The notes: generated from the letters alone by a model not told the origin. A stretch of DNA of 64,000 bases from an archaeon GW2011_AR10 (GCA_000830275.1 CP010424.1:815311-879310), one strand, 5' to 3'. Shown: positions 11,868 to 59,600, counted from the first letter of the stretch. Numbers and translations are program-made.

Positions 11868-12542
11868 ATGGATTTTGGCATTGAAGTCGCCTTACTCTTA
11901 TTGCTGCTAGCGCTCTTCTCTGCTGTCTCATTTTACAAGAAGACAATAAGCAACACCGGCATTTTGGTTGGAAACATTGTGGGGCTGGTTGTTTTCTTTC
12001 TTGGAGGCCTACAAAGCTTTGTGGCACTCGCGGCATTATTTGCAGTTGCAGAAATAACCACTTTTTATTCGAGGTTAAAGCTGAAAGAAAAACACGAGCA
12101 GCGTACCACCTCAAACATTATCGGCAACTCCGGGGCAGCACTAATTGTACTGCTGCTTGGGTTTCAGCAAGCATTCTTTGGTGCGATAGCTGCTGCACTG
12201 GCTGACACAACCGCTGGCGAAATAGGCATGCTCTCAAAGAAAAAGCCAAGGCTGATCACCACATTGAGGCGGGTTGAAACCGGCACTGATGGGGCCATCA
12301 CTTTGCTGGGCTTAATCACAGGTTTTTTTGGGGGATTAGCAATTGGAAGCATTTACTTATTTTTTTCAGGAGATATTAAGGGGTTCGCTTTTATTACAGT
12401 TGCAGGAATTGTGGGAAATGTTGTTGACAGCTTAATTGGAGCAGTTTTTGAGAGAAGGAAACTGCTCAACAACTCTCAGGTTAATTTTCTGGCAGGCTTA
12501 AGCGGCGCCATAACCGTGCTGGTTCTTTCCGCTATGTTTTAA
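11868..12542 (+). CDS. Polytopic membrane protein (224 aa; possibly DUF92/TMEM19-like).
   Basis: Five to six hydrophobic helices with G-rich loops. The family assignment is uncertain. Confidence 0.35.
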   Translation: MDFGIEVALLLLLLALFSAVSFYKKTISNTGILVGNIVGLVVFFLGGLQSFVALAALFAVAEITTFYSRLKLKEKHEQRTTSNIIGNSGAALIVLLLGFQQAFFGAIAAALADTTAGEIGMLSKKKPRLITTLRRVETGTDGAITLLGLITGFFGGLAIGSIYLFFSGDIKGFAFITVAGIVGNVVDSLIGAVFERRKLLNNSQVNFLAGLSGAITVLVLSAMF

Positions 12543-13452
12543 TTGAAGCGCTGCCTGCATCGGAGATGCTTTCCTTGAAGCCCTCAGCAAAGGCCTTTCC
12601 TCCGACAAAAAACAGGTCAAAAATGCTTGGTTCCTCTTTGTAGTAGGTTGTTACAGAAGGTTTTCCTTCAATTCCTGCAAGCCTAGCTGCTTTTTCGATT
12701 GCTTGTTCCCTGGGCAAGAGTTCATCAACCAGCTTGGCTTCCAACGCCTGCTTTCCTGAAAGGATTCTTCCATCAGCTATTTCCTCAAACTTTTCCCTCT
12801 GCAGCTTGCCCTGCCTGAACTCGAGTATGTCTTCCTTGAATTCAACAAAGACCTCTTCCATTATATTTAAGAACAGGGCTTTTTCTTCCTCTGAAAGCGA
12901 CTCAAAAATGCTCCCGGAACCCTTGAATTTGCCCTCTGTTAGAACCTCCACTTCAACGCCCCAGTTTTCAAGCAGTTTTTCAATGTTTGGAATTATTGAA
13001 ATTACCCCGATGCTCCCAACAATTGAGCCGGAATCCGCAATAACGTAATCAGTTGCTGCAGCAACATAGTAGGCTCCGCTTGCTCCGGCTTCCCCAATGT
13101 ATGCCACTGATGGCTTATTGAGTTCCCTTATCTTGTAAACTATTTGTTTTGTTGCAACAACGCTGCCGCCTGGGCTGTCAATGTCCAAAAAAATCACTCC
13201 AACGCTGGGGTCAGCATCTGCTTCCTCGAGTTTTTCCACTATTGCCAGAGCCCCAAATTCAGGAGAAAAAGAGCTTCTCTCCATAACTATTTCACCCTTA
13301 ATCGGAATAACCGCCACCTTTTTGGTGAAATAACTTGAAGAGGGGGCAGAAATGGTAAAAAGGCTTAAAACCACGGCAGAACCTATTAAAAACACCAGAA
13401 TAACTGCAACAATTAATAAAATGGTTTTAGCATTAAGACTTTTAAAACTCAT
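12532..13452 (-). CDS. sppA: Signal peptide peptidase SppA (S49 family).
   Basis: DIDSPGGSVVA serine motif. N-terminal TM start MSFKSLNAKTILLIV (internal ATG chosen over the track's TTG). A TTATATAT box lies immediately upstream. Confidence 0.7.
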   Translation of the reverse strand: MSFKSLNAKTILLIVAVILVFLIGSAVVLSLFTISAPSSSYFTKKVAVIPIKGEIVMERSSFSPEFGALAIVEKLEEADADPSVGVIFLDIDSPGGSVVATKQIVYKIRELNKPSVAYIGEAGASGAYYVAAATDYVIADSGSIVGSIGVISIIPNIEKLLENWGVEVEVLTEGKFKGSGSIFESLSEEEKALFLNIMEEVFVEFKEDILEFRQGKLQREKFEEIADGRILSGKQALEAKLVDELLPREQAIEKAARLAGIEGKPSVTTYYKEEPSIFDLFFVGGKAFAEGFKESISDAGSASIKT

Positions 13453-13487
13453 AATAAAGTCAATATATAAAGCAATAATTAAAAACA

Positions 13488-14015
13488 ATGCGCAGGGATC
13501 AGGTGTCTGATGCGATAATTAAAATACTGCTGTATATTGCCCCGATGTACTTGGCTAATTCAACCGCAATGCTTTTTGGCGGAAAAAAACCGCTTGACCT
13601 GAACAAAAAGTTCTTTGATGGAAAACCAATTCTTGGAAAAGGAAAAACGTTCAGGGGCACTGCAATAGGGGTTCTCATTGGCTCGGCCACAGCGCTGGCA
13701 GTTTCTGTTTTATTTGAACAGCAAACGCTTCTGCTTTCTGAAAACTATTTGGCGTTGGGAGTATTGCTCTCAGCAGGAGCAATCGCAGGGGACATAATTG
13801 CAAGCTTTTTCAAGAGAAGGAATTCCATCCCGCAGGGAACCCAAGTTCTTTTCCTCGACCAGCTTGACTTCGTTTTTGGCGGAATGATTGCAGGCAGCAT
13901 TTACTACGTGCCTGACTTTTTTGAAATAATTGTTATCAGCGTTTTAACTCTTATTATCCACAAGCTTAGCAATTTCTTTGCATTCAAGGCAAAGCTGAAA
14001 AACGTCCCCTGGTGA
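13488..14015 (+). CDS. carS: CDP-archaeol synthase CarS (DUF46 family).
   Basis: 175-aa polytopic membrane protein; ...GGKKPLD...GKGKTFRG... resembles CarS. It shares an AT-rich TATA region with the divergent sppA. Confidence 0.6.
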   Translation: MRRDQVSDAIIKILLYIAPMYLANSTAMLFGGKKPLDLNKKFFDGKPILGKGKTFRGTAIGVLIGSATALAVSVLFEQQTLLLSENYLALGVLLSAGAIAGDIIASFFKRRNSIPQGTQVLFLDQLDFVFGGMIAGSIYYVPDFFEIIVISVLTLIIHKLSNFFAFKAKLKNVPW

Positions 14016-14497
14016 ATCAATTGGATAAGAGAGTTGTTTTCCTGCTGAAATTTTTCGCAATTTTTTCTGTTCTACATTACCTTCTTTTGGTTGTTAACCT
14101 TCGGCCAATGCAGGAATTCATCGCCAAAAGCCAAGCAATGCTCCTCAACTTAACCTACGACGGCACACTGGTAAGAATAGGCTCTGAAACATTTGAAATA
14201 ACGCCAAGCTGCACTGGCCTAGTCAGCAGCATCATTCTGGCAGCAATTGTTTTTTCATTGAAAAAACCAGGCCTCAAGAGCAAGACTGCAACTCTTGCCA
14301 TCGGGGTTATTTTCCTTTTGGCTGCAAATTATGTGAGAGTATACTTTGTGCTGCTTTCGGCAATCGCATTCGGCGGCCGTGCAGCTGAAGCAGTTCACAT
14401 TATCACTTGGTTTTTGACTGCAGCACTTGTTATAGTTGTCTGGTATTACGGGACAAAAAGAATTGCCAAAGTAAAGGAATTCAACGATTTCCTATAA
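14012..14497 (+). CDS. Small exosortase/archaeosortase-family-like membrane protein (161 aa); putative.
   Basis: Four to five TM helices. TPSCTGL resembles the exosortase catalytic C(S/T)G motif, with downstream conserved Arg (YVRVYF, GGRAAEA). GTG start overlaps the carS stop as GTGA. Confidence 0.4.
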   Translation: MNQLDKRVVFLLKFFAIFSVLHYLLLVVNLRPMQEFIAKSQAMLLNLTYDGTLVRIGSETFEITPSCTGLVSSIILAAIVFSLKKPGLKSKTATLAIGVIFLLAANYVRVYFVLLSAIAFGGRAAEAVHIITWFLTAALVIVVWYYGTKRIAKVKEFNDFL

Positions 14498-14534: not shown

Positions 14535-16205
14535 TCACTCGCCCAAAAAAAAGCGGGCAATTTCAGCGTACGCAGGCCTAGTGATTAAAACGCCTATTAG
14601 CACTCCCGTGATTGTTGTAATAGCAAATCCAACGAGTTTTCCAAGGCCGAAACCGAAAAAAATAATCGGGAACATTGTTACAATAACCGTTGAAGCCGCA
14701 GCGAAAATTACGAAGAATGCACGCTTTACTCTCCCAGTCAAGGACTCTGCAGCAACAACTTCTCCCTTCAAAAGTTCGTCGGTTATAATTATTTGGTCAT
14801 CCACTCCGGTGCCGATAGCTGCAAGAATTCCTGTAACTGCTGCAAGATCAAGATTGTACCTTATGAGAGAGGCGACGCCGAGTATCAAGAGAACTTCGCT
14901 TAAGCCGGTGAAAATCATTGGACCAATCAAGACTAATTTCCTGTATCTTATATATAAAACCAGTGCTACAACAACCATGGCAGCAAAGCCAATGAAGAAA
15001 GTGCTCTGCAGGAACTCTTTTCCGAGGAAAGGGCTAACCGTTTCCTTTGAAATGCTGTCAATCGGCACAGGTAGCGAGCCTGTTTCGAGGAGAATTGTTA
15101 AATCATCCAGCCTTTTTTGCGCGGTTTCAAGGTCCACAGCCGTGCCAGTAATTGAGAGGTCAGAGAAAATCTGCGCGTTCTCAGGCCTTTCAACGAACGG
15201 CTCAAGGTTTGCAATGCTGGGGCTTAAAGCAATGACTTGCTGTGCGCCAGTAACGTTCCAAGTCCAAGGAACCTGATTTTCAAACCCGATTTTTGCAGAG
15301 CCCAATTCATCTGAAGAGACTCTTGCGCTGCCCTCAAGTTCAACTTCCTTTAACTTGAACCCCAAAGCAGAAAGTGCATTCTTGTCCTCTGCACCAAGCA
15401 GTGAATGAGTTATGACCGTGTCTTTTTCTGCTGCAATTTCCTGGAGCTTTGAGAGCTGTTTTTCAGAGAGATTGTTGTCAACAACAAAATAGGGAATCGC
15501 TGAATTGTCCAACAGCTCGCTTATTTCCACTCCCTGCGGAATATCATCAGCGGGATTTCCTAGTAGGAGAAGCTGTCTGTCAAGCTCTAAAACATCCCGC
15601 GGGATAACCAAAACAGCGTTGGCTGGCCTGTCAATGAAAAAATATGTCAGCTCGCAATCGTACTGGTTTCCTTGTTCAACAGAGTAAGAAAGGATGGCGC
15701 ATTTGTGGAAGGCTTTTTTTGAAAAGTTTACTGCAGCTTCCTGGTTCAATGTAAATGGGAGGTTCCACGAGATGAGCTGCTGTGCTCCCTGCTGGAAGCC
15801 GTAGCCTCTTCCAGGATCCTTCACTATCTGAATTATGTCAGAGCCGGTAAACAGGAGGTTGCCGTCAAGGAATGCCTCAAACTTTCCCTGCGTTTTAAGG
15901 AGCACTTCAAGTTCCTCAATGCGCTCAGGGTCTGTTTCAGCAATCTGTGCAACAACGAATTCCTCACCAAAAGTTGAAACCTTTGTATCTCTTAAGCCAA
16001 ATGAATCCATTCTCTGCTGGATTATGGAGGTTACTGTGCTGAGCTGCTGTGCTGATTCAGGTTTCTCGGCCAAGTGAAGCTCAAAAATAGTTCCGCCCTT
16101 GAAGTCAACCCCCAAAGCAAGGCCATTAAATGAAAGGGAAACAAGTGAAACAAACAGAAGGGAAAGCAGTAAAAGAATCTTCCAGTTTTTCAGCAGCCTT
16201 CTCAT
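14535..16205 (-). CDS. secD: Protein-export membrane protein SecD.
   Basis: 556 aa. Large periplasmic domain plus a C-terminal six-TM bundle. ATGA overlap with secF. Confidence 0.8.
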   Translation of the reverse strand: MRRLLKNWKILLLLSLLFVSLVSLSFNGLALGVDFKGGTIFELHLAEKPESAQQLSTVTSIIQQRMDSFGLRDTKVSTFGEEFVVAQIAETDPERIEELEVLLKTQGKFEAFLDGNLLFTGSDIIQIVKDPGRGYGFQQGAQQLISWNLPFTLNQEAAVNFSKKAFHKCAILSYSVEQGNQYDCELTYFFIDRPANAVLVIPRDVLELDRQLLLLGNPADDIPQGVEISELLDNSAIPYFVVDNNLSEKQLSKLQEIAAEKDTVITHSLLGAEDKNALSALGFKLKEVELEGSARVSSDELGSAKIGFENQVPWTWNVTGAQQVIALSPSIANLEPFVERPENAQIFSDLSITGTAVDLETAQKRLDDLTILLETGSLPVPIDSISKETVSPFLGKEFLQSTFFIGFAAMVVVALVLYIRYRKLVLIGPMIFTGLSEVLLILGVASLIRYNLDLAAVTGILAAIGTGVDDQIIITDELLKGEVVAAESLTGRVKRAFFVIFAAASTVIVTMFPIIFFGFGLGKLVGFAITTITGVLIGVLITRPAYAEIARFFLGE

Positions 16206-17272
16206 GCTGTTGGCCTCCTTGCTTTCCTGCTTTCAGCATACCATAAAAGAACAGGCGAGTTCATAAGCCAGGTTGAAATAAGGTCAGCAAATAAACCAAA
16301 CAAGAGCACTGCAGAAATCTCGAAAATAACAGTTATCTGGCCAAAGTAACTTAATGCAAGCATTACAGTTAATGCACCAATTGTGGTGAATGTCATTGTC
16401 AAACCAGTTACAAGTGAGTCCCCTGCCCTTTCATGCAGTTCCTTTTCCCGCCTCTTAAGAACATTTGTTGTAAGCATTATGTCAGTGTCAACACTGTAAC
16501 CTATCAGCATGAGCAGCGCTGGAATTGTTGTAAGAGACAGTGGAATGCGGAAAACCGCCATTCCGGCAAGCGAGCCGGCAATGTCGAAAGCAGCTGCAGC
16601 GATTATTGCAATTGAGGGAACAAACTCTCGGAAGAACACGAAAATAACTATTGCAAGCAGCGCGAAAGCAATCAGGGAAACGGTTATGCCAGTAGCATAA
16701 AAGCTCTCACCAAAAACAGGGCCTACCTCATCCCTTGAAAAGCGTGCTTCTGCTCCAAGCGAGAGCTCCTGTTTTATGACTTCATCCAAGCGAGTGGAAA
16801 AATTCTGCTTTGCCTTGTTGAGTGCATCCTCTGCAAAAGCAATTGCTCTGCCTGCCTCAGCGTTTTCCGGGAAAGGCTCCGAAAAATAGCTGCTTATTGC
16901 CTGAACGGAGCTCCTTGAAAGTTGAACCGCGTTCTGGGGGTTTGAAGCGCGCTGGTCTTTTGCCTGCTGGAGCAGAGATTGCGCTTCAGCCAAATCCCTG
17001 TTCTCTGCGAACTGGACTAGAACCTTAAAGCCCAATGGCCCGGACGTTGTGCTCAACTGAAGGTCGCTTAAGCTGAATTCTTGGCGGAGCCTTTGCTCCA
17101 AGGAAAGCATTTCAACCTGGCGGTCAAGGCTAACCCTTATCACTGTGCCGCCACTAAGGTCAATGCCCTTTGGCACGGTCGGAGAAACGAAAATCAGGAA
17201 AAGGAACACTAGGAAAAAAACGGCTGGAACCGCCAAAAGCTTCTTGTAATCGCCTTTATAGGGGTTAAACAT
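16202..17272 (-). CDS. secF: Protein-export membrane protein SecF.
   Basis: 356 aa. SecF-type C-terminal TM bundle; upstream partner of secD. Confidence 0.8.
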   Translation of the reverse strand: MFNPYKGDYKKLLAVPAVFFLVFLFLIFVSPTVPKGIDLSGGTVIRVSLDRQVEMLSLEQRLRQEFSLSDLQLSTTSGPLGFKVLVQFAENRDLAEAQSLLQQAKDQRASNPQNAVQLSRSSVQAISSYFSEPFPENAEAGRAIAFAEDALNKAKQNFSTRLDEVIKQELSLGAEARFSRDEVGPVFGESFYATGITVSLIAFALLAIVIFVFFREFVPSIAIIAAAAFDIAGSLAGMAVFRIPLSLTTIPALLMLIGYSVDTDIMLTTNVLKRREKELHERAGDSLVTGLTMTFTTIGALTVMLALSYFGQITVIFEISAVLLFGLFADLISTWLMNSPVLLWYAESRKARRPTA

Positions 17273-23109: not shown

Positions 23110-23832
23110 TTAAAAAAAGCCTACAAACCAAAGAAGCACTATCAGCAGGGCAATTAATAGCAAAACAGTGGGCAGTTTTTCTCTTGTTGAAACTGCAGAA
23201 AAAATAGTGGAAAAGAAACCCTTAATGTATTGCAGCCAAGAAGCAGGGTCCCTTAGTTCTTTAACTGTTTCATGAATTGTTTCACTGAGGTTTGGCTCCC
23301 TCGAGGAAATTGTTTCACCTTTCAGTACGCTGCCGTTTACGGCGTTAACCTGAAGCAAGTAATGCAATCCATCAACTGAAATGTCCGCCGACCATATTGG
23401 AACATAGAATAGTTCAAAAGCTGAAAGCACTACATTTTGAGGGGCTGCTTTATTCATTGAGGCAACTCTGAGAGCGGCTATTTCCCTGGCTTCTGCCTCC
23501 TTTACTTTTGGTTTTTTGACTTCAAGTTCTTGCTCCGCATCAATTTTGTTGGATAGCTCAAAGTCACTTCTTTCAACAAGCAACGCAACATTTTCACTTA
23601 ACTCGTTAATGAAAGCATTTAATGCCAGCCTCCCCTTTGAGTGGCTTGAAGCAGCTGAGCCTTTGCCCTGCAAGTAGATGTCATAAGAGAAAAACCAGAA
23701 CGGAACAAGAAAAAGCTTTGGCGTTCCTACTTCAAATACCAGCCAGTTTTTGGACTTGAGAAATGATTCCAAAATACTTACTGCCTCTGTCTGGCTGACC
23801 CTCAGCTTGAACGCCTGTTTGCTCAAGTACAT
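23110..23832 (-). CDS. Hypothetical protein (240 aa) with a C-terminal TM anchor.
   Basis: ATG start. Soluble N-terminal domain, ends LLLIALLIVLLWFVGFF. Lies upstream of the SepF-like gene. Confidence 0.45.
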   Translation of the reverse strand: MYLSKQAFKLRVSQTEAVSILESFLKSKNWLVFEVGTPKLFLVPFWFFSYDIYLQGKGSAASSHSKGRLALNAFINELSENVALLVERSDFELSNKIDAEQELEVKKPKVKEAEAREIAALRVASMNKAAPQNVVLSAFELFYVPIWSADISVDGLHYLLQVNAVNGSVLKGETISSREPNLSETIHETVKELRDPASWLQYIKGFFSTIFSAVSTREKLPTVLLLIALLIVLLWFVGFF

Positions 23833-23863
23833 AAAAAAGAAGAGCAGAAAAAGCTAGTTAAAA

Positions 23864-24223
23864 CTACGCGTTTTCTCTTCTCTTCACAATTTTAACTTTG
23901 CTGGGCGTTATGAGGACCCTGTCCTGAGAAATCCTTGCGATATCGCCATCAATTTGCTCTATTCCGTCCCTTATCTGGCCGATCATGTCACGGAGCTTTA
24001 TGGCGTTTCTCTTTGAAAGGTCCGAAATGTTCAACAGGATTATGTTGCCTTTCTTTGCCTCGTCAAGAACCATTGTCAAGTCATTGTCTGTAGTCAATGA
24101 AATTGGCTTAACAAAGGCGTCTGCATTCTCGAAAGAGGATTCTTCTTCAACATCAATGTTGTTAAGGAATTCCTCAACATCAATTTCTTCCCTTTTACCT
24201 ATCAGTTTTTCAAAAAAAGCCAC
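23864..24223 (-). CDS. sepF: SepF-like (DUF552) cell-division protein.
   Basis: 119 aa. C-terminal region ...GNIILLNISDLSKRNAIKLRDMIGQIRDGIEQIDGDIARISQDRVLITPSKVKI resembles the SepF domain. GTG start. Confidence 0.5.
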   Translation of the reverse strand: MAFFEKLIGKREEIDVEEFLNNIDVEEESSFENADAFVKPISLTTDNDLTMVLDEAKKGNIILLNISDLSKRNAIKLRDMIGQIRDGIEQIDGDIARISQDRVLITPSKVKIVKRRENA

Positions 24224-37637: not shown

Positions 37638-38159
37638 ATGCGAATTCTTCTTACTGGCACCCCGGGGGTTGGAAAAACATCCATAGCAAGAGTGCTTGCC
37701 AGGAAACTCAAATACAGGCTTATTAACGAGTACTCATTTGCAGTGGAAAATGGCATAGGCGAGTGGGATGCTGAGGAAAACGAGCTGGTTGTGCCGCTGA
37801 AAAAGCTTGAGAAACTACTAAACAAGGAATTGAAGCGCTCGGATAACGTAATAGCAGAAGGCCATTTGCTCTGTGAGATAAGGCTTAAGGTGGATGTGGC
37901 AGTGCTTTTAAGAGTGCACCCTGAACTGCTTGAGGCAAGGCTTGAAGCAAAAAACTATAAGCCTGAAAAGATCATGGACAACATTTTCTGTGAGGGAATA
38001 GACTACTGCAAAAAGCACTTGGAGCGAAACTACCCCAAAGAAAAAATTGTAGAAGTGCAGGCAAGGAAAAGTATTAAAGAAACTGCAGATACAATATTGA
38101 AGGAGATTAAGAAGATTAAGAAGAGGGGGAAGAGGGTTAAAAAGAGGGGCAAAAAATGA
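37638..38159 (+). CDS. Fap7/adenylate-kinase-6-like putative kinase (P-loop NTPase).
   Basis: MRILLTGTPGVGKTS Walker A, size 173 aa, archaeal Fap7-like. The C-terminus is K/R-rich. Confidence 0.6.
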   Translation: MRILLTGTPGVGKTSIARVLARKLKYRLINEYSFAVENGIGEWDAEENELVVPLKKLEKLLNKELKRSDNVIAEGHLLCEIRLKVDVAVLLRVHPELLEARLEAKNYKPEKIMDNIFCEGIDYCKKHLERNYPKEKIVEVQARKSIKETADTILKEIKKIKKRGKRVKKRGKK

Positions 38160-39400
38160 GGCTTTTTTTTGTAGTTTTGCTGGTGTTGCTGCTTGCAAAT
38201 GCAGCATTTGCAACAGTGTTAGAGGAAGTGCCCTTCAATACGCTAGGCCACGAGGACTTCATTATTGAGGGCACTAACCAGAGCAACTGCACCGAAATAG
38301 AGTTCTTCAACTTTTCAGACCTGAACAATGCAATAAACCCTGTTCTGTCACTGCATGTGGAGTTCCTGCCAATACAGTCCAAAGACAGCCAAGTAACAAT
38401 TTTCTTAAACAGCCAATACAAGGAGCTTGCTGAGCTGCGCGGAACTGATTTTCATGATGGGTGGGCGCGAGTAGAGGTTGACAACAACGAATTGATGGAA
38501 AAAAATATGCTTAAGGTGTGCGGCAAGACAAGCCAGGCTGTAACAGGGCTGCAAATCAAGAGCGATTCGTTGATTGGTTTCTACCTCAAACCTGATTTCA
38601 GAAAAGAGAACGCATTCACGCTTTCGGTGCCAGAAAAAAGCATAAAATTGGGGGAGGAATTCGAAGTAAAAGCAACTCTACATAACTACGGGGAGGTTGG
38701 AACCGCATTGCTGCTGAAGTACAGGAGAGAAGAACTCGAAAGGGAAACGCCTGAAACAGAGCTTGTTAGGGGAGACACAAGGCTGGATGCTTTTGTGCCA
38801 AAGTGCAGTGAACGGGATTCGAATGGAGCATGCATTTCCCCAGGGGAAATTGAATTCAGCTACTTTTTGAGGCCTGAAAAAGCAGGCCAAATTTCGCTTC
38901 TGCCCTCAATTGCAGAATACACCAACATATTCGGTGAAACAGAAGTAATCGAGTCTGACAGGCCGAACATTTTTGTTGAAGAGCCGGAAAAAAAAATCAG
39001 GGCATTCATCAGGCTTGAAAAAGGAACCTACAATGCAGGAGAATCCGCAGATTTTACCTTGATTGTTTCAAACATTTCCACTGAACCAGTGCCAAATGTC
39101 GGGGTTTTCCTGAATGCTTTTGGGCTTGAAGTTGTTCAAGGAAAACGCTCTGAAACTATCGAGTTGCTGCAGCCAAAAGAGTCAATTGAGAGAAGCTTCA
39201 AGGTTACATCTAATTCAAGCGGCAAATTTGATGTTGGATGCAAAATAACCTACCTTGAAGAAGAGCTTATTGAATCAGAATGCCTTGCAGCGCCGATTGA
39301 GTTCAAAGAGAAAAGCATTGATTTGGGCATTGTTGCAGGAGCCTTTTTGTTCATTGTAGGCGCAGCAGTTTTCATATACATAATGTCTAGAAAAGAATGA
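38156..39400 (+). CDS. Secreted surface protein with CARDB-like domains and a C-terminal TM anchor (414 aa).
   Basis: Signal peptide MRLFFVVLLVLLLANAAFA. Two CARDB-like beta-sandwich segments. C-terminal ...DLGIVAGAFLFIVGAAVFIYIMSRKE (motif, TM helix, basic tail). ATGA-coupled to the Fap7-like gene. Confidence 0.5.
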   Translation: MRLFFVVLLVLLLANAAFATVLEEVPFNTLGHEDFIIEGTNQSNCTEIEFFNFSDLNNAINPVLSLHVEFLPIQSKDSQVTIFLNSQYKELAELRGTDFHDGWARVEVDNNELMEKNMLKVCGKTSQAVTGLQIKSDSLIGFYLKPDFRKENAFTLSVPEKSIKLGEEFEVKATLHNYGEVGTALLLKYRREELERETPETELVRGDTRLDAFVPKCSERDSNGACISPGEIEFSYFLRPEKAGQISLLPSIAEYTNIFGETEVIESDRPNIFVEEPEKKIRAFIRLEKGTYNAGESADFTLIVSNISTEPVPNVGVFLNAFGLEVVQGKRSETIELLQPKESIERSFKVTSNSSGKFDVGCKITYLEEELIESECLAAPIEFKEKSIDLGIVAGAFLFIVGAAVFIYIMSRKE

Positions 39401-39447: not shown

Positions 39448-42400
39448 CTACCCTTTGAAGTTTATTTTTTCCACCCTTAATTTCTGCTTTTCTGGCTGCC
39501 TGCTTTTCTTGTATCTAAAAAATGCCACGACTGCAATCACTCCAAGCAATGGGTAAACTGCCGAAGGAACAGAGAATTGCTCCGCATTGCTGAATGAAAG
39601 CAAGCCAGTTGCCCTGCTTGAGAGATTAATTGCCTCAACGTAGTTGCTTTGTTCTAGCTCGCTTTTTGCTTTCTCAATCAGCTGCCTTGCCTCCTCATTT
39701 GGGGGGGCAGCATTGTACTTTATGGCAGCAAAGTTGAATGCTGAAACAGAATCCTCTTTTAGTTTATCCAGGTCTCCTGCAAGCTCTTTTTCGATTCTTT
39801 CAAGCGAATTTATTGCAGTATCAAGCTCTGGTGAAAAAAAATTGGAAAGTTCCAATGCCTTAAATGGCTCCTTCTCGTTTATCGCTTCCATAAATTCTGA
39901 GATGCTACTGCTGACACTCAATAGTTGCTCTGAGTTTGCCTTCTCCTCAAGTTTTTCCAAGCGCTCAACAGTTGTTGGTGCCACGTAATTGGAAGGAATG
40001 GCTGGAGAGGAAAGTGCTGACCTTAACAAGGAAATTTTCTCTGAAACAAGCTGCTTCAGCTCTTCAAATGCAGATGTTCTCTCCAGTATTTTGTTCAGCT
40101 TTTCTTTGGCTGACTTTTCAAGCAAAGAATTGAAGTCGAAAACTTTTTCGGAAAAAGTGCTAAGAAGGGTTTCGGCAACTGAAAGCTCCTGCCTTGAAAT
40201 CGCCTCCTCTGCTTTTCTGCTCAGTTCAAGCAGTTCATCCCTTTCAGTGGAAATGCTGCCCTCATCCAATCCAACGGAAAACGCCTTGGAAAAAAAGTCG
40301 TTAGCAAGTTTTTCCAGCTTGTTCTTTTCTTCCAAAAACAGGCCGGAAATGCCGGCATAAGGTTTCTCTGCAATAACACTTCTTGCAAGAAGGAGTTCCG
40401 AAAAAGCTGCATTCAAGTCTTTTTCATTGAATAAGTTCTCTGCTTTCGACAAGTGAAGTTCTGCCTTCTGCAGTGATGATTGCATCTGCTCTGTGAAGTT
40501 CTCTTGACTAAAATCTTTTAGGAAAAGGTTTGCGAAAACTGGCTTCTGGCTGAAACCTTTTAGCCGCTCAAGTTCCCCCTTAAACTGATTCAGCTCCTGA
40601 TGCAGTTCCCTCTCAAAAACCAGAAAATCTTGGCTCTTCTGTTCAAATCCGCTTTGCTCGTTTTCCAGAGAAGCGACAAGCTGGCTTAAACCAATTATTG
40701 CTCCAATCGACTTCTCATTAACCAAATCACGGGATTCCTCCAAGCCCTCAATCTCCCCCAGCAAAAGGTCTGCTTTTGCCCTTAAACCCGGTTCATTAGA
40801 GCCATTAATCAGGGAAACCTTTTGCTTTAAAGAAGCCAGCACAGAAGTCCAGTACTGCTCATAATTGCTGACTTCCAGTGAGATGAAAAACTGCTTTGGC
40901 TGGTTTGGAGGGAGTTCATCGAAAGTAACGGAAACACTTTCATCTGAAATCACTTCAACCGGAATGCTTTTGCCTGTTGAATCAAATGCTTTAAGCCAAG
41001 CAATGTTTCTTTCCTTAATTGGAAATGGCAGAAGCACTTTTGCTTTTTTTAGCTCGAATGCAAGCTTGTTCTTAACTGAAAAAGGGAAAGTGTAATCAAA
41101 TCGGTTTTCATCAACTTTGTCCAGCTTTGGCTCATTAAACTCAACTTCTACCGGCTTCAAAACATTGAAGAAAACCCTGGCTTTCTCCTTTCCGGCAACG
41201 CTTTCAGCGAAAAACGCCAGCTTGCCGTCCAAAAAATGAAACTGCAGCTGCTTCTCGCGGAATATGACAGTAATGCTTTCCCTTTCAACTGTTAATGCTG
41301 GGTTGAATTCGCTCAGCACCAAAAGCTTTGGAATTAAAGCAGGGGCTTCAATTAATATTTCTCTTTCAAATAGCGCTTTATCTGAATCAAGGAAAAGCAG
41401 CTCATCAACATGGGTTGCTGTTGCAGGAACAGAGTTAAAGTCAACAGAGAAAACTGTTAGGCCAAGCGGCACAAAATTCAGGTCAACAATCATCACGCCG
41501 TTGCTGAGTGAAACAGACTTAACGTTTGGAGTGGCATGAGAAAAAACAGCGCTGCCAGAATCCTTGGTTTCAAACCGCAGCTGCAGCGGACCATCGAATT
41601 CTGCAAGGTTATTCCTTAAAGTGAATTTTTTTCTTGCTGAAAATGGTTCATTCGTTTTTGGAATCGAATCACTGAACAGTTCAATGCCCGCATTTTCCTG
41701 CAAGTAGTTTTGTAATGACTCCAAAAAAGTTTTTTTGGAATCCTGCCTTAGCTTGAAAGAGGATTCATTCAGCTGCTTTAGCTTGCCCAAAGCTTTCGAA
41801 AAGTTGAGTTGCGGGCCATCAAAGAAAGTTGATTCGCCTTCAAAGCGCTGCCTTAAACCAAAAAGTTCTTCAGCAGAAAAGCCATTGACTTTAGCAGTCT
41901 CCAGCAGCCCGAGGAGTTCAACAAATCGCTGGGAGGCAGAGTGGTTGGCAGCAATCGATTCAGCTTCAGGCAGTTCAGACAGGGAAGACTCAACCTTTTC
42001 TCTCAGGTTTTCACAGGAAGATAAAATGAACGGGCTTGAGGAAAAATCCAGAAACTTTAACTGGTTAAACAACGGCTGAAGCTCGGAAAAGGCATCTGAC
42101 TCAGAAGAAGAGAAAGCCCTTTCAAGGAAATCAATGCACTCTTTCACTGAATTTGCTTGCTCCAAGCGGAAAACCTCCGGGTTTCCTAGTGCGGCTTTAA
42201 GGCTGGCAAAGCTCTCAAAAACAGGCTTGCAGTTCTGGAGCTTTTCTTTGGGCCGGGTTGAAGAGTTAAACCTGTTAACCCTCAGCCTTGTAACTGAAGC
42301 AAGGTCAGAGAGCAGAAAGTTTTCCTGCTCCCCAAAAGAAATTTTGTTGAGCTGCTGTTCCACCAAACTGATTCTTGACTCGCACAAGCCGACGAGGGTT

Positions 42401-43683
42401 GAGATGGCTTCATCAGAAAAAAACTCAAGTTCTTCATGGAATTCTTTTGCCTCAAGCAGAAGCTGTTTTAGTTTAAGGGTTTTTTCGCCAAGAGAGATTT
42501 GCCCAAGCGCTTCAGCAGTTGAAAGCGCCTGAATCCTTGAGTTGAATTCAAACAGCTTTTTGAGGCCTTCCTCTTTTGCAGTTGAAATTCCTTTTATTGC
42601 ATCCTCCTGTGAAACAATTATTGTTTCCTGGCTTAGCATTGAAATCAGCTCAGCCAAGAAGTCTTCATCAAAGTCACGGTAGGAAGCTGAATCAATCAGC
42701 TCGATTTTTTCCCTGGAATCTTCCAATAGCACTGAAATTTCCTCTTCCAAGGAGTGGTTCCGCTGCATGAGCTCCTGCTTGTGCTTGTGCGTTCGGTTCA
42801 TCAAGTCAAAAAAGTAAAGCGTGGTTGAATCGCCAACTCCGACAAAACCGTTGAGAGAGTTGAGCAGCTCAAATGAGGGGAAATGCTGGAGAGCGCTGAC
42901 TGCATCGCTTAATGTCATGGAGTCAGCGAAGAAATTTGCAACTGAGCTTACCGAACTGCCTATAATCGGAACAAAGAAAGGTTTTTTTGGAACACTAGGA
43001 GAGAGTTTTTTGTCTGCAGCTTTAATTAGGTCAGCAAGAGTTGACTCCTTGAGAATGCGCTGCTCGAATCCAAGAGCTTCGGAGAATTTTTGGAATTCCG
43101 CAGCCCTGCTGAACTGCATTGAAGCAAAGCCCCCTGCGTTTTCCATTTGCGGGTTGGCTAACTGGAGGATGTTGTTGTTTAATGCAGTGAAATCATCGAA
43201 CAGTTTTTCCTCCCTTATTTTTTCAATTTCCTCTCCTTCAAGCTCTGCGCGCTCAAGGAACATCGCGTAATATGCCAAGCCATTCAAGGCGTCAACCTCT
43301 TCAAATGCTCCAACCAAGTGGTGGTTGAGTTCATTGATTTGGCGCGGCAATTCAGAGAGGCTCTGTTGGTTAGAGCAAAGGGCATAAATCTCCTTGAGGT
43401 TGTCTTTTGCGCGGGAAAAGTAAAGCCAGCTTCGCGCAACCCTGTTTTTGTACTCGTGCATTACCTGCTGCACTTCAGCCGAAAACAGATTCTCCTCTGC
43501 ATCAAAACTGCTTTCAACCAGCTCAAAGCATTTCTCCTGGCTTTTACAATAAGGTATTTCGGCGTTAGAGTAGGAAGCCAGCTCCATACAGAGAAGCCTA
43601 TCCCCAGTTGATGCTTCCTGGCTGCAGCCGAACAAAAACAGCAAAAAAACCAGGCCAGAAATCCACTTTGTCGAGGAAGCCAT
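39448..43683 (-). CDS. Giant (1411 aa) predicted lipoprotein/surface protein, largely alpha-helical, with a C-terminal TM anchor.
   Basis: N-terminal signal with lipobox-like LFGC. Long E/L/K/S-rich central region. C-terminal PLLGVIAVVAFFRYKKSRQ. All antisense ORFs in the region are low-complexity. Confidence 0.55.
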   Translation of the reverse strand: MASSTKWISGLVFLLFLFGCSQEASTGDRLLCMELASYSNAEIPYCKSQEKCFELVESSFDAEENLFSAEVQQVMHEYKNRVARSWLYFSRAKDNLKEIYALCSNQQSLSELPRQINELNHHLVGAFEEVDALNGLAYYAMFLERAELEGEEIEKIREEKLFDDFTALNNNILQLANPQMENAGGFASMQFSRAAEFQKFSEALGFEQRILKESTLADLIKAADKKLSPSVPKKPFFVPIIGSSVSSVANFFADSMTLSDAVSALQHFPSFELLNSLNGFVGVGDSTTLYFFDLMNRTHKHKQELMQRNHSLEEEISVLLEDSREKIELIDSASYRDFDEDFLAELISMLSQETIIVSQEDAIKGISTAKEEGLKKLFEFNSRIQALSTAEALGQISLGEKTLKLKQLLLEAKEFHEELEFFSDEAISTLVGLCESRISLVEQQLNKISFGEQENFLLSDLASVTRLRVNRFNSSTRPKEKLQNCKPVFESFASLKAALGNPEVFRLEQANSVKECIDFLERAFSSSESDAFSELQPLFNQLKFLDFSSSPFILSSCENLREKVESSLSELPEAESIAANHSASQRFVELLGLLETAKVNGFSAEELFGLRQRFEGESTFFDGPQLNFSKALGKLKQLNESSFKLRQDSKKTFLESLQNYLQENAGIELFSDSIPKTNEPFSARKKFTLRNNLAEFDGPLQLRFETKDSGSAVFSHATPNVKSVSLSNGVMIVDLNFVPLGLTVFSVDFNSVPATATHVDELLFLDSDKALFEREILIEAPALIPKLLVLSEFNPALTVERESITVIFREKQLQFHFLDGKLAFFAESVAGKEKARVFFNVLKPVEVEFNEPKLDKVDENRFDYTFPFSVKNKLAFELKKAKVLLPFPIKERNIAWLKAFDSTGKSIPVEVISDESVSVTFDELPPNQPKQFFISLEVSNYEQYWTSVLASLKQKVSLINGSNEPGLRAKADLLLGEIEGLEESRDLVNEKSIGAIIGLSQLVASLENEQSGFEQKSQDFLVFERELHQELNQFKGELERLKGFSQKPVFANLFLKDFSQENFTEQMQSSLQKAELHLSKAENLFNEKDLNAAFSELLLARSVIAEKPYAGISGLFLEEKNKLEKLANDFFSKAFSVGLDEGSISTERDELLELSRKAEEAISRQELSVAETLLSTFSEKVFDFNSLLEKSAKEKLNKILERTSAFEELKQLVSEKISLLRSALSSPAIPSNYVAPTTVERLEKLEEKANSEQLLSVSSSISEFMEAINEKEPFKALELSNFFSPELDTAINSLERIEKELAGDLDKLKEDSVSAFNFAAIKYNAAPPNEEARQLIEKAKSELEQSNYVEAINLSSRATGLLSFSNAEQFSVPSAVYPLLGVIAVVAFFRYKKSRQPEKQKLRVEKINFKG

Positions 43684-53880: not shown

Positions 53881-56613
53881 CTACCTTACCCTGATTGCTT
53901 TCCTGCGCCTTGACTGCTTGTAGAAGTAGTCTGAAATCAGGATGGAGGCAATTTCAAGCACAACGAATGCAAGAGCAGCATTGAAGCCGAAGAACCTGTC
54001 AACCTGGAATGGCAGAATGAAGAGCAATATTGCAATGCCGATTCTTGTAGCGTCCTCAATTTGTTTCTCGCGCGAGCTCTTCGGCCTTCGCGGGAACAAA
54101 AGAATGCTTTTTGTGTGAGCAAACGCTGCAGCAAGCAGGGAGATAACTACAAGAATCAAGAACAGGACGGGTTGCCTTATTATTGAGCCGAACAATAGTT
54201 CAGTGCCTGCACCGGCGCCAACAAACACTGATTCAAAGAAGCCGGTTGCAAGGAAGCTTGCCTCAAAAACAGTGAAGCCCTTCCTTGTGACAATCAGCTT
54301 ATGGCTCCCTGCTACAAGTGCCCTAAACTCCCCTCTGCCTAAATCGCTTAATTCAATTCTCTGCCTTTCACCGTTTGGAAGCTCTACCTCAACTATTATG
54401 TCGGAGGGAATCTGGCCGTCCTCTGTTTGAACGATTATTGGGAGGGTTTCCCCAACAGCAATTATTTCCTTGAAGTCAGGCAACACGATTCTTGCAACTG
54501 AAAAAGCCCCCTGGAATGGGTCAAACTCTTCCTTGGAAACATCCACAAGGTAAGCGCCGGGCTCTATTAAATCAAAAATTATGAAGCCGCCTGCATTAGT
54601 GTCAAATTCTCTTACCGTTCCGGAAGGGAATGTAAGTGAAACATTTGCGTTTGCAACAGGCTTTCCGAGCCTGTCGAAAACTCTCAGGTGCCTTGTGTCG
54701 CCTAGGAAGTCAGCATCATTGTAATTGAATATCACGTTGAACTGGTTAAAGCCTATTACAAGGCTCTGCAATGCCTCATTGTTTAACTCGTTTAGTTCCG
54801 GCACAGAATTGGATGGGTCAATTACGAGCTTCAATTCGTTTACTCCGAAGAAATCGTTTGTGTCCTCAACAGAAAAATAGATTTCAGCTGAGCCATCGGT
54901 TTCAAGCCCTGCAATTGTTACTGAGTCAACCAGCTGGTTGTTCAAAAGCAGGACAACATCAAAAGAGGCGGCATTGGAAACGCCTGCATTCTTTACTGTT
55001 GCACTGACATTCAAGGGCTTTCCGACAACAGAAAACGAGGGAATGTTTTTTTGAGTGAAAATCAACTCTGAAAGAAGCACGCAGTCCTCGTCAATCAAAT
55101 CGTCATTGTCGTCATCCTTGAAATTACCGCAGATTTCAACGCACTTTATTCTGTGCGGTGGAATAACAGCATACCACGCATCAGTATATACCCTTGAACT
55201 GTTTCCTAAACCATCATAAGCATAAGTGTTTGAGTAAAAGAAAACCTCTCCTGAAACAGGGCCAATTGTGCCGGTAAACTTTTCCCCGCTCTTTGACAGG
55301 AAAACAGTTTCATCTTTAGAGGTTCTTCCAAAGCGGTAAAACACTTTAGCTGTTTCAACTGTAGCTCCCTCAACAGGGGTTAGCTCAACATCAATAAAGA
55401 AAGCAGAATAATTGTCATTAGGCCTTGCCTCAAACTCCACGCTTTCAATCAGCTTAACTTTTTGGCTGGGAAGCGGGGGCCTGAATGCCTCGTCCTCGTC
55501 AACAGGCAAAAAGAACTGCAGGTTAACAATGCTGCCGTCAATGTCCATAAAATTGTAGTACACTGTGTCTGCATCAGAAAATGAAGCATTCAGGGTTTGC
55601 CCCTGCTTTACATTGGTGAAACTGAACTGCTGTGAGGAAGAGCCCCTTACAACAAAAACGTCAACAAACCCAATGCTGTCATCATTGTCATACACGCTTG
55701 TTGCAACAAGCTGGCCGCTCTGGTTAACAATTTTAATCCATGAAAACTGGCTGCTTCCCTGCAGCAGAATCACTGGTGCATTTCCCTCATTTGCCAAATT
55801 AATTGTTTCGCTAATTTCTTCGTTGATTATTGCTGAATCAAATGATGCTGCTTCAAACTGGATTGTTGGAGTCTCTGTCACAGTTGATGGGGCAGCTGAA
55901 GCAGGAACCCCGATTAAGGCGCAGGCTGCAACATCAGACGCAATTAAATGGTAAACTGTTGAGCCAAAGCCGGAGGTAACTTTTTTCCCAGAAGAATTGT
56001 AAACTGTTATGCCACTGTAAGGGTAAATTTTTCCGGTGAACGGCCCGGCTGTTGCAGTGAAAGTGTCGCCGTTTTTAATCATCGGGACACTTGTTCTTGT
56101 TCCGCTTTTAGTGAAACTGTAAAAAAACACTGCCCTTTCAGCTGAAAAAGCGGAATTAATGTCAGCTGAAACATCAAGATAAAAGCTTCTGTTCCCCTCG
56201 GCAAGCCTTGGAGTGATTGTTTTGCCCAAAAACACTTTCGGCTTTGGCTGCACTGGAGTAGGCTCTTCCGGGGGCTGCGGGTTCAGAACAAAAATGAAGT
56301 ACTGCAGGTTAACAATTGCCCCGTCATTGTCCATAAAATTGTAGTAAATGCTTGAATCAGAAGAAAATGCAACATCAAACACTGTTCCTTCTTCAACTCC
56401 TGAAAACTGGTAACGGTTAACTGAGCCGGAAGAAGCAATAAAAATGTCCACCAAACCAATGCTGCCGTCATCATCAAACACGTTTGTGGCCACAAGTTCT
56501 GGGCCCTGAACTTCAATCTGAATCTGTGAAAATTCTTGTGCATGCGCTGCACTAGGCAAAACCAAGGCCAAAAGCACTGCAATCAAAGCATGTTTTATTG
56601 ATTCTCTGTCCAT
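53881..56613 (-). CDS. Large secreted/membrane surface protein (about 910 aa) with CARDB-like domains, a Cys-x-DDDNDDLIDEDC acidic metal-binding-like motif and a C-terminal multi-TM region.
   Basis: Start moved to the ATG (MDRESIKHALIAVLLALVLPSAAHA, a signal peptide). Overlaps the stop of the upstream giant gene by 19 nt. Several hydrophobic helices in the C-terminal 120 aa. Confidence 0.6.
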   Translation of the reverse strand: MDRESIKHALIAVLLALVLPSAAHAQEFSQIQIEVQGPELVATNVFDDDGSIGLVDIFIASSGSVNRYQFSGVEEGTVFDVAFSSDSSIYYNFMDNDGAIVNLQYFIFVLNPQPPEEPTPVQPKPKVFLGKTITPRLAEGNRSFYLDVSADINSAFSAERAVFFYSFTKSGTRTSVPMIKNGDTFTATAGPFTGKIYPYSGITVYNSSGKKVTSGFGSTVYHLIASDVAACALIGVPASAAPSTVTETPTIQFEAASFDSAIINEEISETINLANEGNAPVILLQGSSQFSWIKIVNQSGQLVATSVYDNDDSIGFVDVFVVRGSSSQQFSFTNVKQGQTLNASFSDADTVYYNFMDIDGSIVNLQFFLPVDEDEAFRPPLPSQKVKLIESVEFEARPNDNYSAFFIDVELTPVEGATVETAKVFYRFGRTSKDETVFLSKSGEKFTGTIGPVSGEVFFYSNTYAYDGLGNSSRVYTDAWYAVIPPHRIKCVEICGNFKDDDNDDLIDEDCVLLSELIFTQKNIPSFSVVGKPLNVSATVKNAGVSNAASFDVVLLLNNQLVDSVTIAGLETDGSAEIYFSVEDTNDFFGVNELKLVIDPSNSVPELNELNNEALQSLVIGFNQFNVIFNYNDADFLGDTRHLRVFDRLGKPVANANVSLTFPSGTVREFDTNAGGFIIFDLIEPGAYLVDVSKEEFDPFQGAFSVARIVLPDFKEIIAVGETLPIIVQTEDGQIPSDIIVEVELPNGERQRIELSDLGRGEFRALVAGSHKLIVTRKGFTVFEASFLATGFFESVFVGAGAGTELLFGSIIRQPVLFLILVVISLLAAAFAHTKSILLFPRRPKSSREKQIEDATRIGIAILLFILPFQVDRFFGFNAALAFVVLEIASILISDYFYKQSRRRKAIRVR

Positions 56614-59600
56614 ATCGTCCACCAAATCAAGCTCAAGGAATTTATTCTCTCGTAATGCATTCTCCTGATAAAGCTTGGCTCAGTCCACCACTTAACTCCG
56701 ACATCGTTTACTTGCCCGTAAGCAGGAACAAGGCCCCTTTCAATGACATCAAATTCATGCACTGAGTAAAGCGAATTGTTCCTGTCAATCCTGAGGTTGT
56801 TAGTTGAAAGGCTCGACAAATTGGATGAAAGCTTGCTCGTTAACAGCACTTCATCTTCCCTGAACTCGCTTAAAGAAATCAGCTGCAGCACTGATAGGTT
56901 GGCTCCGGCAACAGAATACTTGTAAGTGTTGTTTTGCCCTGATGCTGTTGAATTCCAGATGCTAACCCACAATGGCTCGTTCTGCAGGAACTCATCGTAA
57001 GAGTAAAACAGTGCCGGATCAACAACATAAGTTATTGAAAGAATTTCATTGTTGGATTCGTTGCTTTCAGGCACTTCATCAAGCGGGTCAACTACAACCC
57101 TTACTTCATTTTCCCCTTCAAATGCTGCTGAGTCAACGGAGAAGATAAATGCAGCGTTGGAGTCAATTGCCAGCGCTTCAAACTGCCCGGAATCAACCAG
57201 TTCATTGTTGAAATAAAGCGATAATGTGAATGGGGTTGAAGCGTTATCTCCCGGGTTTTTCACCATTCCTGAAACCATAATGTTTTCGCCGCTGAAAACA
57301 GATGACGGAATGTCCACATTTTCCAGTGTTAGGTCAGACAAAAGCAGCTCGATGAATATTTCTTCAACGTTGTCTGCCTCATTCACTTCACTAATGTCTC
57401 CCTCCGAGTCAACGAATACATAGAAGTTTGTTGCCTCCTGGAAATAAGCAGCAATTCCTTCCTCTTTCTCTGCAAGCCTGAATACTGTGCCTATTGGCGC
57501 CTCCCAAACAAACTGCAGGGTTAGCTCGCCGTCCTTGGAAACCGCATCAATAAAGGTTACTGCAACACCGTTCCCTGAAAGCGCGTCCTTGAAGAACTCA
57601 ACGTAGAAGTCCTCTGACTTTGCGTAATCTGACTTAACTATAACAGTGAACTCAACGCTGATCAAGTCCGTTCCAACGTAGGTTGGAGAGCCAATTTCAA
57701 TTGATTTAATGTAAAGGTTCGGCAGGTTGCAGCCCTCATCAACCAGGCCATCGCCGTCATCGTCAGCATTGTTGTTGCAGATTTCTGGGCCGGCAAAGTA
57801 AATTGAAACCTGCGTTTCGTTGTTGGATTCATTGCTTTCAGCAACCGCGCCTGAATCATCAGCTGTTAACACAAACTCTTTTGTCTGATACAGCCAGCCA
57901 CTCATTTGAGGATTGGAAGAATTGAAAGCAATGTTGAATACAAGGCTTACCGCGTCTCCTGCACCCAAACCGTTAACTGTCTTTGATTCAGAGTACTTGT
58001 CTGGCCCTGTTCCCTTCTCCTTCAACTTAACAGTAAAAGAAGCATCAGTTTCGCCGGCATTATTGTAAACCGTTACAACAACTAAGCCAGTTGAACCATC
58101 ATTAATTACTGAGGAAGCACTGGCCGAAATCGTTAAATCTGGAACTGACTCGCATGGAATGCTGCAGCATGCATCCGAATCAGTTGCACTCAAAAGCGTG
58201 CCCGAGCAGGTTTCAAAGGCACTGCAAATGAAACCATTCTGCTCTGCACAGGTCTGGATAGGCAAGGAACAGTCAGCCGGGCAAGTGGAAGTGGTTTCAC
58301 TTCCAGTGCACTGGCCGTCGCCGCAAACATCCGCTGGCGGGCAAACACCGCAGTCAGCGGAGCAAGTTGAACAGTCTTCTCCTGTTTCACATGAGGCATT
58401 TCCGCAGACAGGCCCTGCAGGAGCACAGTCGCTTGGACAGTTGTTTTTGTTCTCTCCCGCCTCACAGGAACCATTGCCGCAGACAGGGCCACCGCCGCCT
58501 CCTGTCTTCCTGAAGGTAACGCTGGCTTCAGAGCCATTGTAGTCAAGGTTGTCTGTTGCCCAAACATAAATTGTGTGGTTGCCGTTGCTGTAGCCGCTAA
58601 ACACGTAGCTTGTGTTGGTTGAATTGTTTATTGTTGCGCCGGAATCAAGCCTTAACCAGTATGTTTTCACTCCTGAGCCAGTGCCATCGCTTCCAGTGTA
58701 CTGCACTGTAATGCTTGAAGATGTTGTGTCAGAACCACTTGTTGGGGAAGAAATTGTTACGGTTGGAGCAGTTGAATCATAAACTGTTGAGTCATTAACA
58801 GTGCTTGATTCGTTGCCTTCAGAGTCCTTCACTTTTACATAAACTGTTTTTGTTCCATCGCCGGTTGAGCATCCAGCTCCTGTTGTAATGTCAAAGCTCG
58901 AGTAGGTTGAAACAAAGGCAATCCAGCTGCCAAATGTTGAATTGTTGCAGCTGAAAGCCATGTGAGAGGCATCACTTCCAGCGGAAATTGTAAGGGTTGG
59001 AGTTGAATCATTTGTGTAGCCAGAAGTATCAGTAATTGCAATTGAACTTAAGCTCGGGGCATTAGTGTCTTGGCCTAACCCCCACTGCGACAAGTGGTTC
59101 AAGTCAGCTGTAACCTTTAGAGTGGTCAAGTTAACGGTTGACGGATACTTCACCCACTCTCCAGCATTAGTATCATAGAAGTACATTGAAACCTTGTTTA
59201 TGTCGGAAGCAGTGCAGCCATACAACGGAGCACTCCCTAAAGCATTATAGCAGTTCAGGGCAGCAACATTAATGTCAAGGGTCAAACTTGGCTTTGTTGC
59301 ACCGAACGAAGTGCTGCTCGGCAATTCAATGTCATAAGCTTCAAGCATTGTTCCGCGGGTGAAAGGCCTGTAGTTTGTGTTTGCATCAATTGTGATATTG
59401 TTGTCTGCTCCAAACAATCCTGAAGGAAAAGTGAAGTTAAAGTCTCCCCAAGCACTGGATATCTGCTGGTTAATTCCTCTTCCATCAGTTGGCACCTTGA
59501 AAGGGCTCTGCGTGTCAACAAAGCACTGAATGGCAGTGGAATCGGCATAGTTTCCTAAAGCATCATAGGTTCTAACCTTGTAGAAGTAAACACCATCAGT

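Follow-up and report, generated by a model that had tools for sequence, protein, structure and literature searches.

Almost all that is understood of archaeosortases comes from ArtA of Haloferax volcanii (TIGR04125), a protein of about 300 amino acids whose catalytic residues are Cys173, Arg214 and Arg253; the first two, 41 residues apart, are both needed for activity (PMC9263693). Cleavage and lipidation of ArtA substrates in Haloferax also require HvPssA and HvPssD, enzymes whose substrate is a lipid derived from cytidine diphosphate (CDP)-archaeol (PMC7157517). The genes artA, pssA and pssD form a cluster in Methanosarcina; in Haloferax they are expressly stated not to lie together (PMC7157517). 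Here we analyse a 64,000-nucleotide stretch of DNA from the archaeon GW2011_AR10 (GCA_000830275.1 CP010424.1:815311-879310; hereafter the window, with positions counted from its first letter), in which a gene for a small sortase-like membrane protein of 161 amino acids (14012..14497, + strand) begins on the stop codon of carS, the gene for CDP-archaeol synthase (13488..14015, + strand). The product of CarS, CDP-archaeol, lies one step upstream of PssA and PssD. A preliminary description of the window had likened this arrangement to a Haloferax artA gene lying beside pssA and pssD; the cluster in question is that of Methanosarcina, and with this change of model organism the parallel between the carS-sortase pair and artA-pssA-pssD stands.

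Family membership, catalytic residues and predicted fold

Two generic models of the exosortase/archaeosortase superfamily recognize the 161-amino-acid protein above their curated cut-offs. Pfam PF09721 (Exosortase_EpsH) scores 33.1 bits against a gathering threshold (GA) of 25.7 and aligns residues 11-146 with model positions 108-250 of 254, which is the catalytic C-terminal half of the model, while the NCBIfam exosortase/archaeosortase signature TIGR04178 scores 42.8 bits against a cut-off of 23. This bears out the preliminary description, which had noted a polytopic open reading frame (ORF) with a TPSCTGL motif (both are present at 14012-14497), had suggested from its resemblance to the catalytic core of the family that it be compared with the profile hidden Markov models (HMMs), and had named a CAAX or transporter family as the alternative. 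No CAAX protease or transporter family matches the protein in Pfam or NCBIfam: the Pfam search at E ≤ 1 returned PF09721 alone, and every NCBIfam match outside the sortases had E > 0.1. The protein is almost certainly a genuine minimal archaeosortase.

It falls below the cut-off of every named archaeosortase and exosortase subfamily model in NCBIfam. ArtD (TIGR04175, 28.3 bits; cut-off 125), pacearchaeosortase (NF033505, 23.2; 80), ArtE (TIGR04124, 22.1; 95), heimdallarchaeosortase (NF045528, 22.1; 130) and ArtF (TIGR04293, 20; 150) are the best-scoring archaeosortase subfamilies, yet the scores are far under the cut-offs; these are themselves small proteins of 150-200 amino acids that, like the one described here, represent a minimal catalytic core. 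ArtC scores 19.3 bits (cut-off 100) and the bacterial XrtA 29.5 (cut-off 208), and the ArtA model stays below the reporting limit for this protein and reaches 19.5-30 bits in its relatives (cut-off 75). The same holds for ten relatives drawn from across the top 150 cluster representatives, which pass the generic signature and no named subfamily model. On sequence grounds we assign the protein to an unnamed clade within the superfamily; the generic family assignment is already in public databases, where several relatives are annotated (by NCBI or JGI) as 'exosortase/archaeosortase family protein [Candidatus Diapherotrites archaeon]'.

Relatives of this size are numerous. A word-indexed search of 5.8 billion proteins found 50, each of about 160 amino acids and 36-55% identical to the query besides one 99% copy, and a profile search with HMMER across 1.84 billion cluster representatives gave 639 matches at E ≤ 1e-3, 160 at E ≤ 1e-10 and 61 at E ≤ 1e-30, nearly all of 150-200 amino acids. 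The matches in the genome collection are almost all metagenome-assembled genomes named 'Candidatus Iainarchaeum archaeon', and the host of the sortase gene is an archaeon of the Iainarchaeota, the phylum once called Diapherotrites, within DPANN.

Residue invariance was judged on an alignment of 28 homologues with 37-53% identity. Among the invariant positions are C67-T68-G69, N106, R109, H129, W133 and W144. Cys67 (codon TGC, 14210..14212, + strand), in the invariant C-T-G motif, is the presumed catalytic nucleophile, and Arg109 (AGA, 14336..14338, + strand) follows it by 42 residues, against the 41 that separate Cys173 and Arg214 in ArtA. A third invariant residue, His129 (CAC, 14396..14398, + strand), is predicted to be close to the point where the last helix reaches the outer face. 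An AlphaFold2 model built with the same alignment is confident (mean predicted local distance difference test (pLDDT) score 92.7, predicted template modelling score 0.84) and has helices at residues 3-27, 31-44, 70-82, 88-120 and 122-152; residues 48-62 form a small three-stranded sheet that would face outward. Taken together with the positive-inside rule, these helices suggest four membrane-spanning segments, with the two basic loops (KKPGLKSK at 84-91 and TKRIAKVK at 148-155) predicted to face the cytoplasm. In this predicted topology helix 2 would begin, on the outer side, at Cys67, helix 3 would have Arg109 close to its outer end and helix 4 would have His129 close to its outer start, which would bring all three residues to the outer membrane boundary.

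The protein thus belongs to the same superfamily as ArtA and has, like it, an invariant Cys that is followed, at a distance of about 41-42 residues, by an Arg; it differs from ArtA in having 161 amino acids and four predicted helices instead of about 300 amino acids. It is homologous to the catalytic region of the bacterial exosortases (EpsH/XrtA, PF09721, TIGR02602), whose substrates carry PEP-CTERM signals; unlike these proteins, which have eight transmembrane (TM) helices, it lacks the N-terminal half, is encoded by an archaeon, and has a lipid-synthesis neighbourhood instead of an exopolysaccharide one.

The carS-sortase junction across relatives

As the preliminary description had it, the upstream neighbour is carS: its 175-amino-acid product scores 141.6 bits with PF01864 (cut-off 22) and 172.7 bits with the equivalog model NF003114 (cut-off 148). 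The GTG start codon of the sortase gene overlaps the TGA stop of carS (14013-14015) by four nucleotides, as GTGA in ccTGGTGAatc, and an alternative TTG start lies five nucleotides past that stop. For comparison we collected 63 related loci from the contigs of homologues, a genome scan (one genome per GTDB species, queried with an 8-sequence alignment; 28 loci), a metagenome scan (19 loci) and the contigs of distant representatives. After deduplication these comprise 49 distinct sortase loci, of which the 48 with some upstream sequence form the denominator of the counts below. Full upstream genes were called by tblastn and short upstream stubs by reading the C-terminus that they encode.

By tblastn, carS lies directly upstream of the sortase gene and on the same strand in 41 of the 48 loci. 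Three others (L051, L062 and L063) have upstream stubs of only 45-92 nucleotides, which end in the C-terminus of CarS (..KVPW or ..HEPW, followed by the stop), bringing the total to 44/48. In most loci the first candidate start of the sortase gene falls between -7 and +6 nucleotides of the carS stop. Sortase genes whose products show 31-36% identity (L005, L021, L032 and L033) are still paired with carS, as are those of the distant representatives P0135, P0158, P0172 and P0190 (profile E-values of 1e-13 to 1e-24), whose G+C content is 41-55% versus 36-44% in the core group. This indicates that the sortase gene and carS are conserved as a pair joined start-on-stop, and that their link is no local accident. 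Because the sortase start coincides with the carS stop or is only a few bases away from it, the two genes are very probably co-transcribed and translationally coupled. No CarS-sortase fusion protein occurs among the top 150 representatives, all of which are of 240 amino acids or less.

The four exceptions to the junction are explained or peripheral. An insertion of 1.0-1.5 kb separates carS from the sortase gene in L008 (3555-4617) and L012 (1350-2870), and the one inspected, in L012, holds a HicB/HicA-like toxin-antitoxin pair and a 201-amino-acid secreted protein. L023 lies in a rearranged region, which also contains a transposase-like ORF, and its sortase copy is truncated at the N-terminus; L059, the most distant member sampled, is a sortase locus without carS.

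The genes around the pair are less constant. In the window, and in agreement with the preliminary description, the pair is flanked by genes for a signal peptide peptidase and for SecDF. The SppA gene (12532..13488, - strand; TIGR00706 177.2 bits, cut-off 155.45; PF01343 126.1 bits) is divergent from carS, its true start probably being the ATG at 13452, and secD (14535-16205, - strand) and secF (16202-17272, - strand) are convergent with the sortase gene; their orthologues carry PF02355 and PF07549, and tblastn gives 36-53% identity. SppA is present in about two thirds of the loci and absent from L001, L005, L013, L015, L021, L028 and L030. SecDF has moved to the other, upstream side of the block in L005 and L020 and is missing from the flank in L015 and L021. 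The carS-sortase pair is retained both where SecDF has moved (L005 and L020) and where SppA is absent; since SppA comes and goes and SecDF moves while the junction survives, the pair varies less than the genes around it.

Further upstream, a gene for an integral membrane protein of the DUF92/TIGR00297 family (11868..12542, + strand; PF01940, 152.4 bits) precedes carS in almost every locus whose sequence extends that far. We take this to be the family of the plant phytyl-phosphate kinase VTE6, and it is conceivable that the protein is an isoprenoid-lipid kinase acting with CarS, for instance in lipid salvage. One contig (L031, JAFCBY010000043.1) that is binned as 'Candidatus Falkowbacteria bacterium' carries an archaeal carS, the sortase gene and an archaeal-type secDF, and is probably mis-binned Iainarchaeota.

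A proposed lipid-coupled reaction and its alternatives

The locus is probably best explained by an ArtA-like mini-archaeosortase operating in a carS operon. In such a model CarS and the sortase would be made from one transcript, with translation of the sortase coupled to that of carS; the sortase would cut the C-terminal membrane-anchor signal off secreted proteins by way of a Cys thioester, and the new C-terminus would be handed to an amine-bearing archaeal lipid derived downstream of CDP-archaeol. The operon would in this way tie the lipid-anchoring of proteins to the supply of activated lipid. As with ArtA, we presume C-terminal anchor cleavage and lipid attachment for the 161-amino-acid protein. 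That it follows ArtA in both, cleaving the anchor and transferring the protein to a CDP-archaeol-derived lipid, is a suggestion that we make tentatively and by analogy, as both the transpeptidation and the lipid acceptor are steps that we infer. The resemblance to the Methanosarcina artA cluster lies in a genomic tie to polar-lipid enzymes of the CDP-archaeol branch; the difference is that carS makes CDP-archaeol, whereas the pssA and pssD of that cluster encode enzymes that consume it. The association of carS with an archaeosortase appears to be undescribed within the literature that we searched, no description having been found in full texts on archaeosortases together with CDP-archaeol, DPANN, Diapherotrites or Iainarchaeota.

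If the protein is a genuine sortase but its place behind carS only reflects a gene order handed down within a compact block of housekeeping genes, there need be no functional dependence on CarS. The block S15-S3Ae-DUF92-(SppA)-CarS-sortase-SecDF is indeed syntenic in most loci of the lineage, as this explanation would have it, and DPANN genomes are compact and rich in gene overlaps, such as that between a kinase gene and the gene for a 414-amino-acid protein elsewhere in the window. However, the neighbours SppA and SecDF shift while the start-on-stop junction stays in place, down to about 30% sortase identity and across 36-55% G+C, and an independent parallel exists in Methanosarcina, where an archaeosortase lies beside enzymes that consume CDP-archaeol (PMC7157517). 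We consider inherited gene order alone unlikely, if far from negligible, as an explanation of the pair. Two further alternatives concern the substrates and involve two proteins encoded 24 kb from the sortase gene, namely the 414-amino-acid type-I membrane protein just mentioned (38156..39400, + strand), which has a signal peptide, tandem beta-sandwich domains and one C-terminal TM helix followed by SRKE, and a 1411-amino-acid protein (39448..43683, - strand), which has a lipobox (LFLFGC) at its N-terminus and, towards its C-terminus, VPSAVYPLLG-TM-RYKKSRQ with 20 more residues behind it. The preliminary description had proposed that their tails share a new tripartite sorting signal, LG(I/V)(I/V)A-TM-basic, and had asked whether the motif recurs among secreted proteins. 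Both tails are exactly as it quoted them, each protein carries a signal peptide and has basic residues behind a hydrophobic C-terminal helix, and in the window LG[IV][IV]A is confined to these two tails. The tails of all window ORFs and of 57-63 related loci (717 kb in all) were surveyed, which for substrates covers 64 kb of the host genome and the flanks in its relatives. What the proteins share is a 5-residue match that lies inside their hydrophobic helices and not ahead of them; a shared run of at least five residues (with I and V taken as equal) arises in 2.1% of composition-preserving shuffles of the pair, which was itself singled out in hindsight from among at least three candidate tails. 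Seven orthologues of the 414-amino-acid protein lack the motif and have IDITIAAAF (twice), LDATILGAG, IPIEVIAGA (twice), LGPFVIFAV or INPAIIGGG at that position, and no invariant signature precedes the helix in their alignment. The 1411-amino-acid protein runs 26 residues beyond its 13-residue hydrophobic stretch. Neither whole protein matches an NCBIfam CTERM model, and the best score of the isolated window tails is 13.2 bits, with GG_III-CTERM, against a cut-off of 22. The genes themselves form a conserved convergent pair: the start of the 414-amino-acid gene overlaps the stop of a gene for a Fap7-like AAA_18 kinase, this kinase/414 pair (37638-39400, + strand) is conserved in L053-L057, and the pair together with the convergent 1411-amino-acid gene is conserved in other Iainarchaeota. 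The letters of the motif are thus present, but the pattern is neither clearly beyond chance nor conserved in orthologues, and on the orthologue alignments, the shuffle test and the CTERM scans we rejected LG(I/V)(I/V)A as a sorting signal; that it is one after all we regard as very improbable. The two proteins look like fixed, orthologous and syntenic membrane proteins and not like a set of substrates that share a tail. A different signal could reside in the 1411-amino-acid protein alone, in which the start of the helix, [VIF]PxxVxPLL[GA], followed by the TM segment and a polybasic tail, would be a VPXXXP-like cognate signal in a non-terminal position. This helix start is kept in all three orthologues (35-41% identity), and ArtA can process tripartite signals that are not C-terminal (PMC9263693). 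Against this, the three form a single orthologous family, so that conservation may reflect orthology, the tail being no better conserved than the N-terminal 300 residues; a search of the 717 kb with [VIF]PxxVxPLL found no other C-terminal tail, its two other matches lying 154 and 321 residues from the stop; and an NCBIfam scan of this tail at E ≤ 10 returned no model of the VPXXXP-CTERM type and only sub-threshold EYxxD and GG_III-CTERM matches. We set the pattern aside as confined to one orthologous family, and consider it improbable that the 1411-amino-acid protein with this signal is the substrate.

For the operation of an ArtA-like sortase together with CarS, several observations must be set on the other side of the balance. 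The synteny of the block means that the adjacency may partly be inherited gene order and not functional coupling. CDP-archaeol is without an obvious amine nucleophile, so that the reaction would call for additional PssA/PssD-type enzymes, of which the window ORFs scanned include none, the window being a small part of the genome. No solved structure is related to the sortase by sequence or by fold (Foldseek, E ≤ 0.001), which bears on the active-site geometry. On the side of the substrates, no cognate sorting signal shared by several unrelated proteins was found in the window and the 63 loci. Secreted proteins with a helix and a basic tail number only a handful there, too few for a new signal, and no tail reaches the cut-off of a known CTERM model (PGF-, PEF-, VPXXXP-, Loki-, Heimdall-, GG_III- and others). 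The sub-threshold scores (Loki-CTERM 17.1 against 19.9 in L028; Heimdall-CTERM 16 against 24 in L001) come from alignments restricted to the helix and the basic part. Unlike the systems that depend on ArtA, moreover, this one has no PGF-CTERM protein among the window proteins and related-locus tails scanned.

Other candidate tails and implications for archaeosortase biology

Classic tripartite tails do occur on Cys-rich secreted proteins of distant genomes, namely NIPDTSMVPIIALLAFVTLILSVKKKRK in L001 and FVPDNSFVSLLLVIGVISFVLTRRKRI in L028. In L001 the tail reads NIPDTSMVP...KKKRK and in L028 it reads FVPDNSFVS...RRKRI, the two having [IV]PDxS[MF]V in common. Because the two proteins occupy the same syntenic slot and have marginal similarity (E = 0.014), the common [IV]PDxS may reflect orthology instead of a shared signal. 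At L059 (1-85), an ORF upstream of the sortase gene ends, at its stop codon, in the helix-plus-basic tail IAVLVMLFGVFLFLGRKKQPNKQSSEFS; the contig is cut there, and the ORF could encode a neighbouring substrate candidate.

Some further features of the surface proteins deserve mention. The 1411-amino-acid protein may be tethered at both ends, by its lipobox and by its C-terminal helix and basic tail, judging from its sequence; the orthologues P0058 and P0059 keep the lipobox (LIFAGC and VLLSGC) and the long basic tail, and the body of the protein, in which E, K, L and S abound, has no match in Pfam. The AlphaFold2 model of the 414-amino-acid protein (pLDDT 82.3) is all-beta with a helix at 390-412, and a fold search with it gave only generic immunoglobulin-like beta-sandwich matches. 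The kinase/414 pair (37638-39400, + strand) also has a faint TRAP_beta match (20.5 bits; GA 22.4). At 23110-24223 (- strand) a gene for a SepF homologue (PF04472) adjoins one for a 240-amino-acid protein that has a C-terminal helix without a basic tail, an arrangement that recurs in L004. Finally, the far end of the window (53881-64000, - strand) encodes two very large surface proteins that contain CARDB domains: one of 914 amino acids, with a CarboxypepD_reg domain in addition and a C-terminus of the hydrophobic-basic kind, and upstream of it a giant ORF of more than 2460 amino acids, open to the window edge and without a C-terminal helix.

The link between archaeosortase processing and lipid supply has so far consisted of one gene cluster in Methanosarcina and the pssA and pssD knockouts. 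The association with carS adds a second, independent and deeply conserved case, from a different superphylum and with an enzyme one step further upstream, and it strengthens the view of archaeosortases as lipid-attaching transpeptidases over that of plain proteases. One may go further and speculate that the carS-sortase operon defines a DPANN clade of mini-archaeosortases that is mechanistically tied to CDP-archaeol synthesis, for example through a CarS-sortase membrane complex that channels activated archaeol. This idea we hold to be doubtful; if true, it would mean that comparative genomics had, for the first time outside Euryarchaeota, yielded evidence for the lipid-donor side of archaeosortase chemistry, and it would open a way into the study of envelope construction in archaea with reduced genomes. 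The clade also offers structural and biochemical work a compact catalytic core of 160 residues with a confident model. While the new sorting signal that had been proposed was not delivered, the conserved carS operon is a useful clue to the lipid chemistry of archaeosortases in DPANN.

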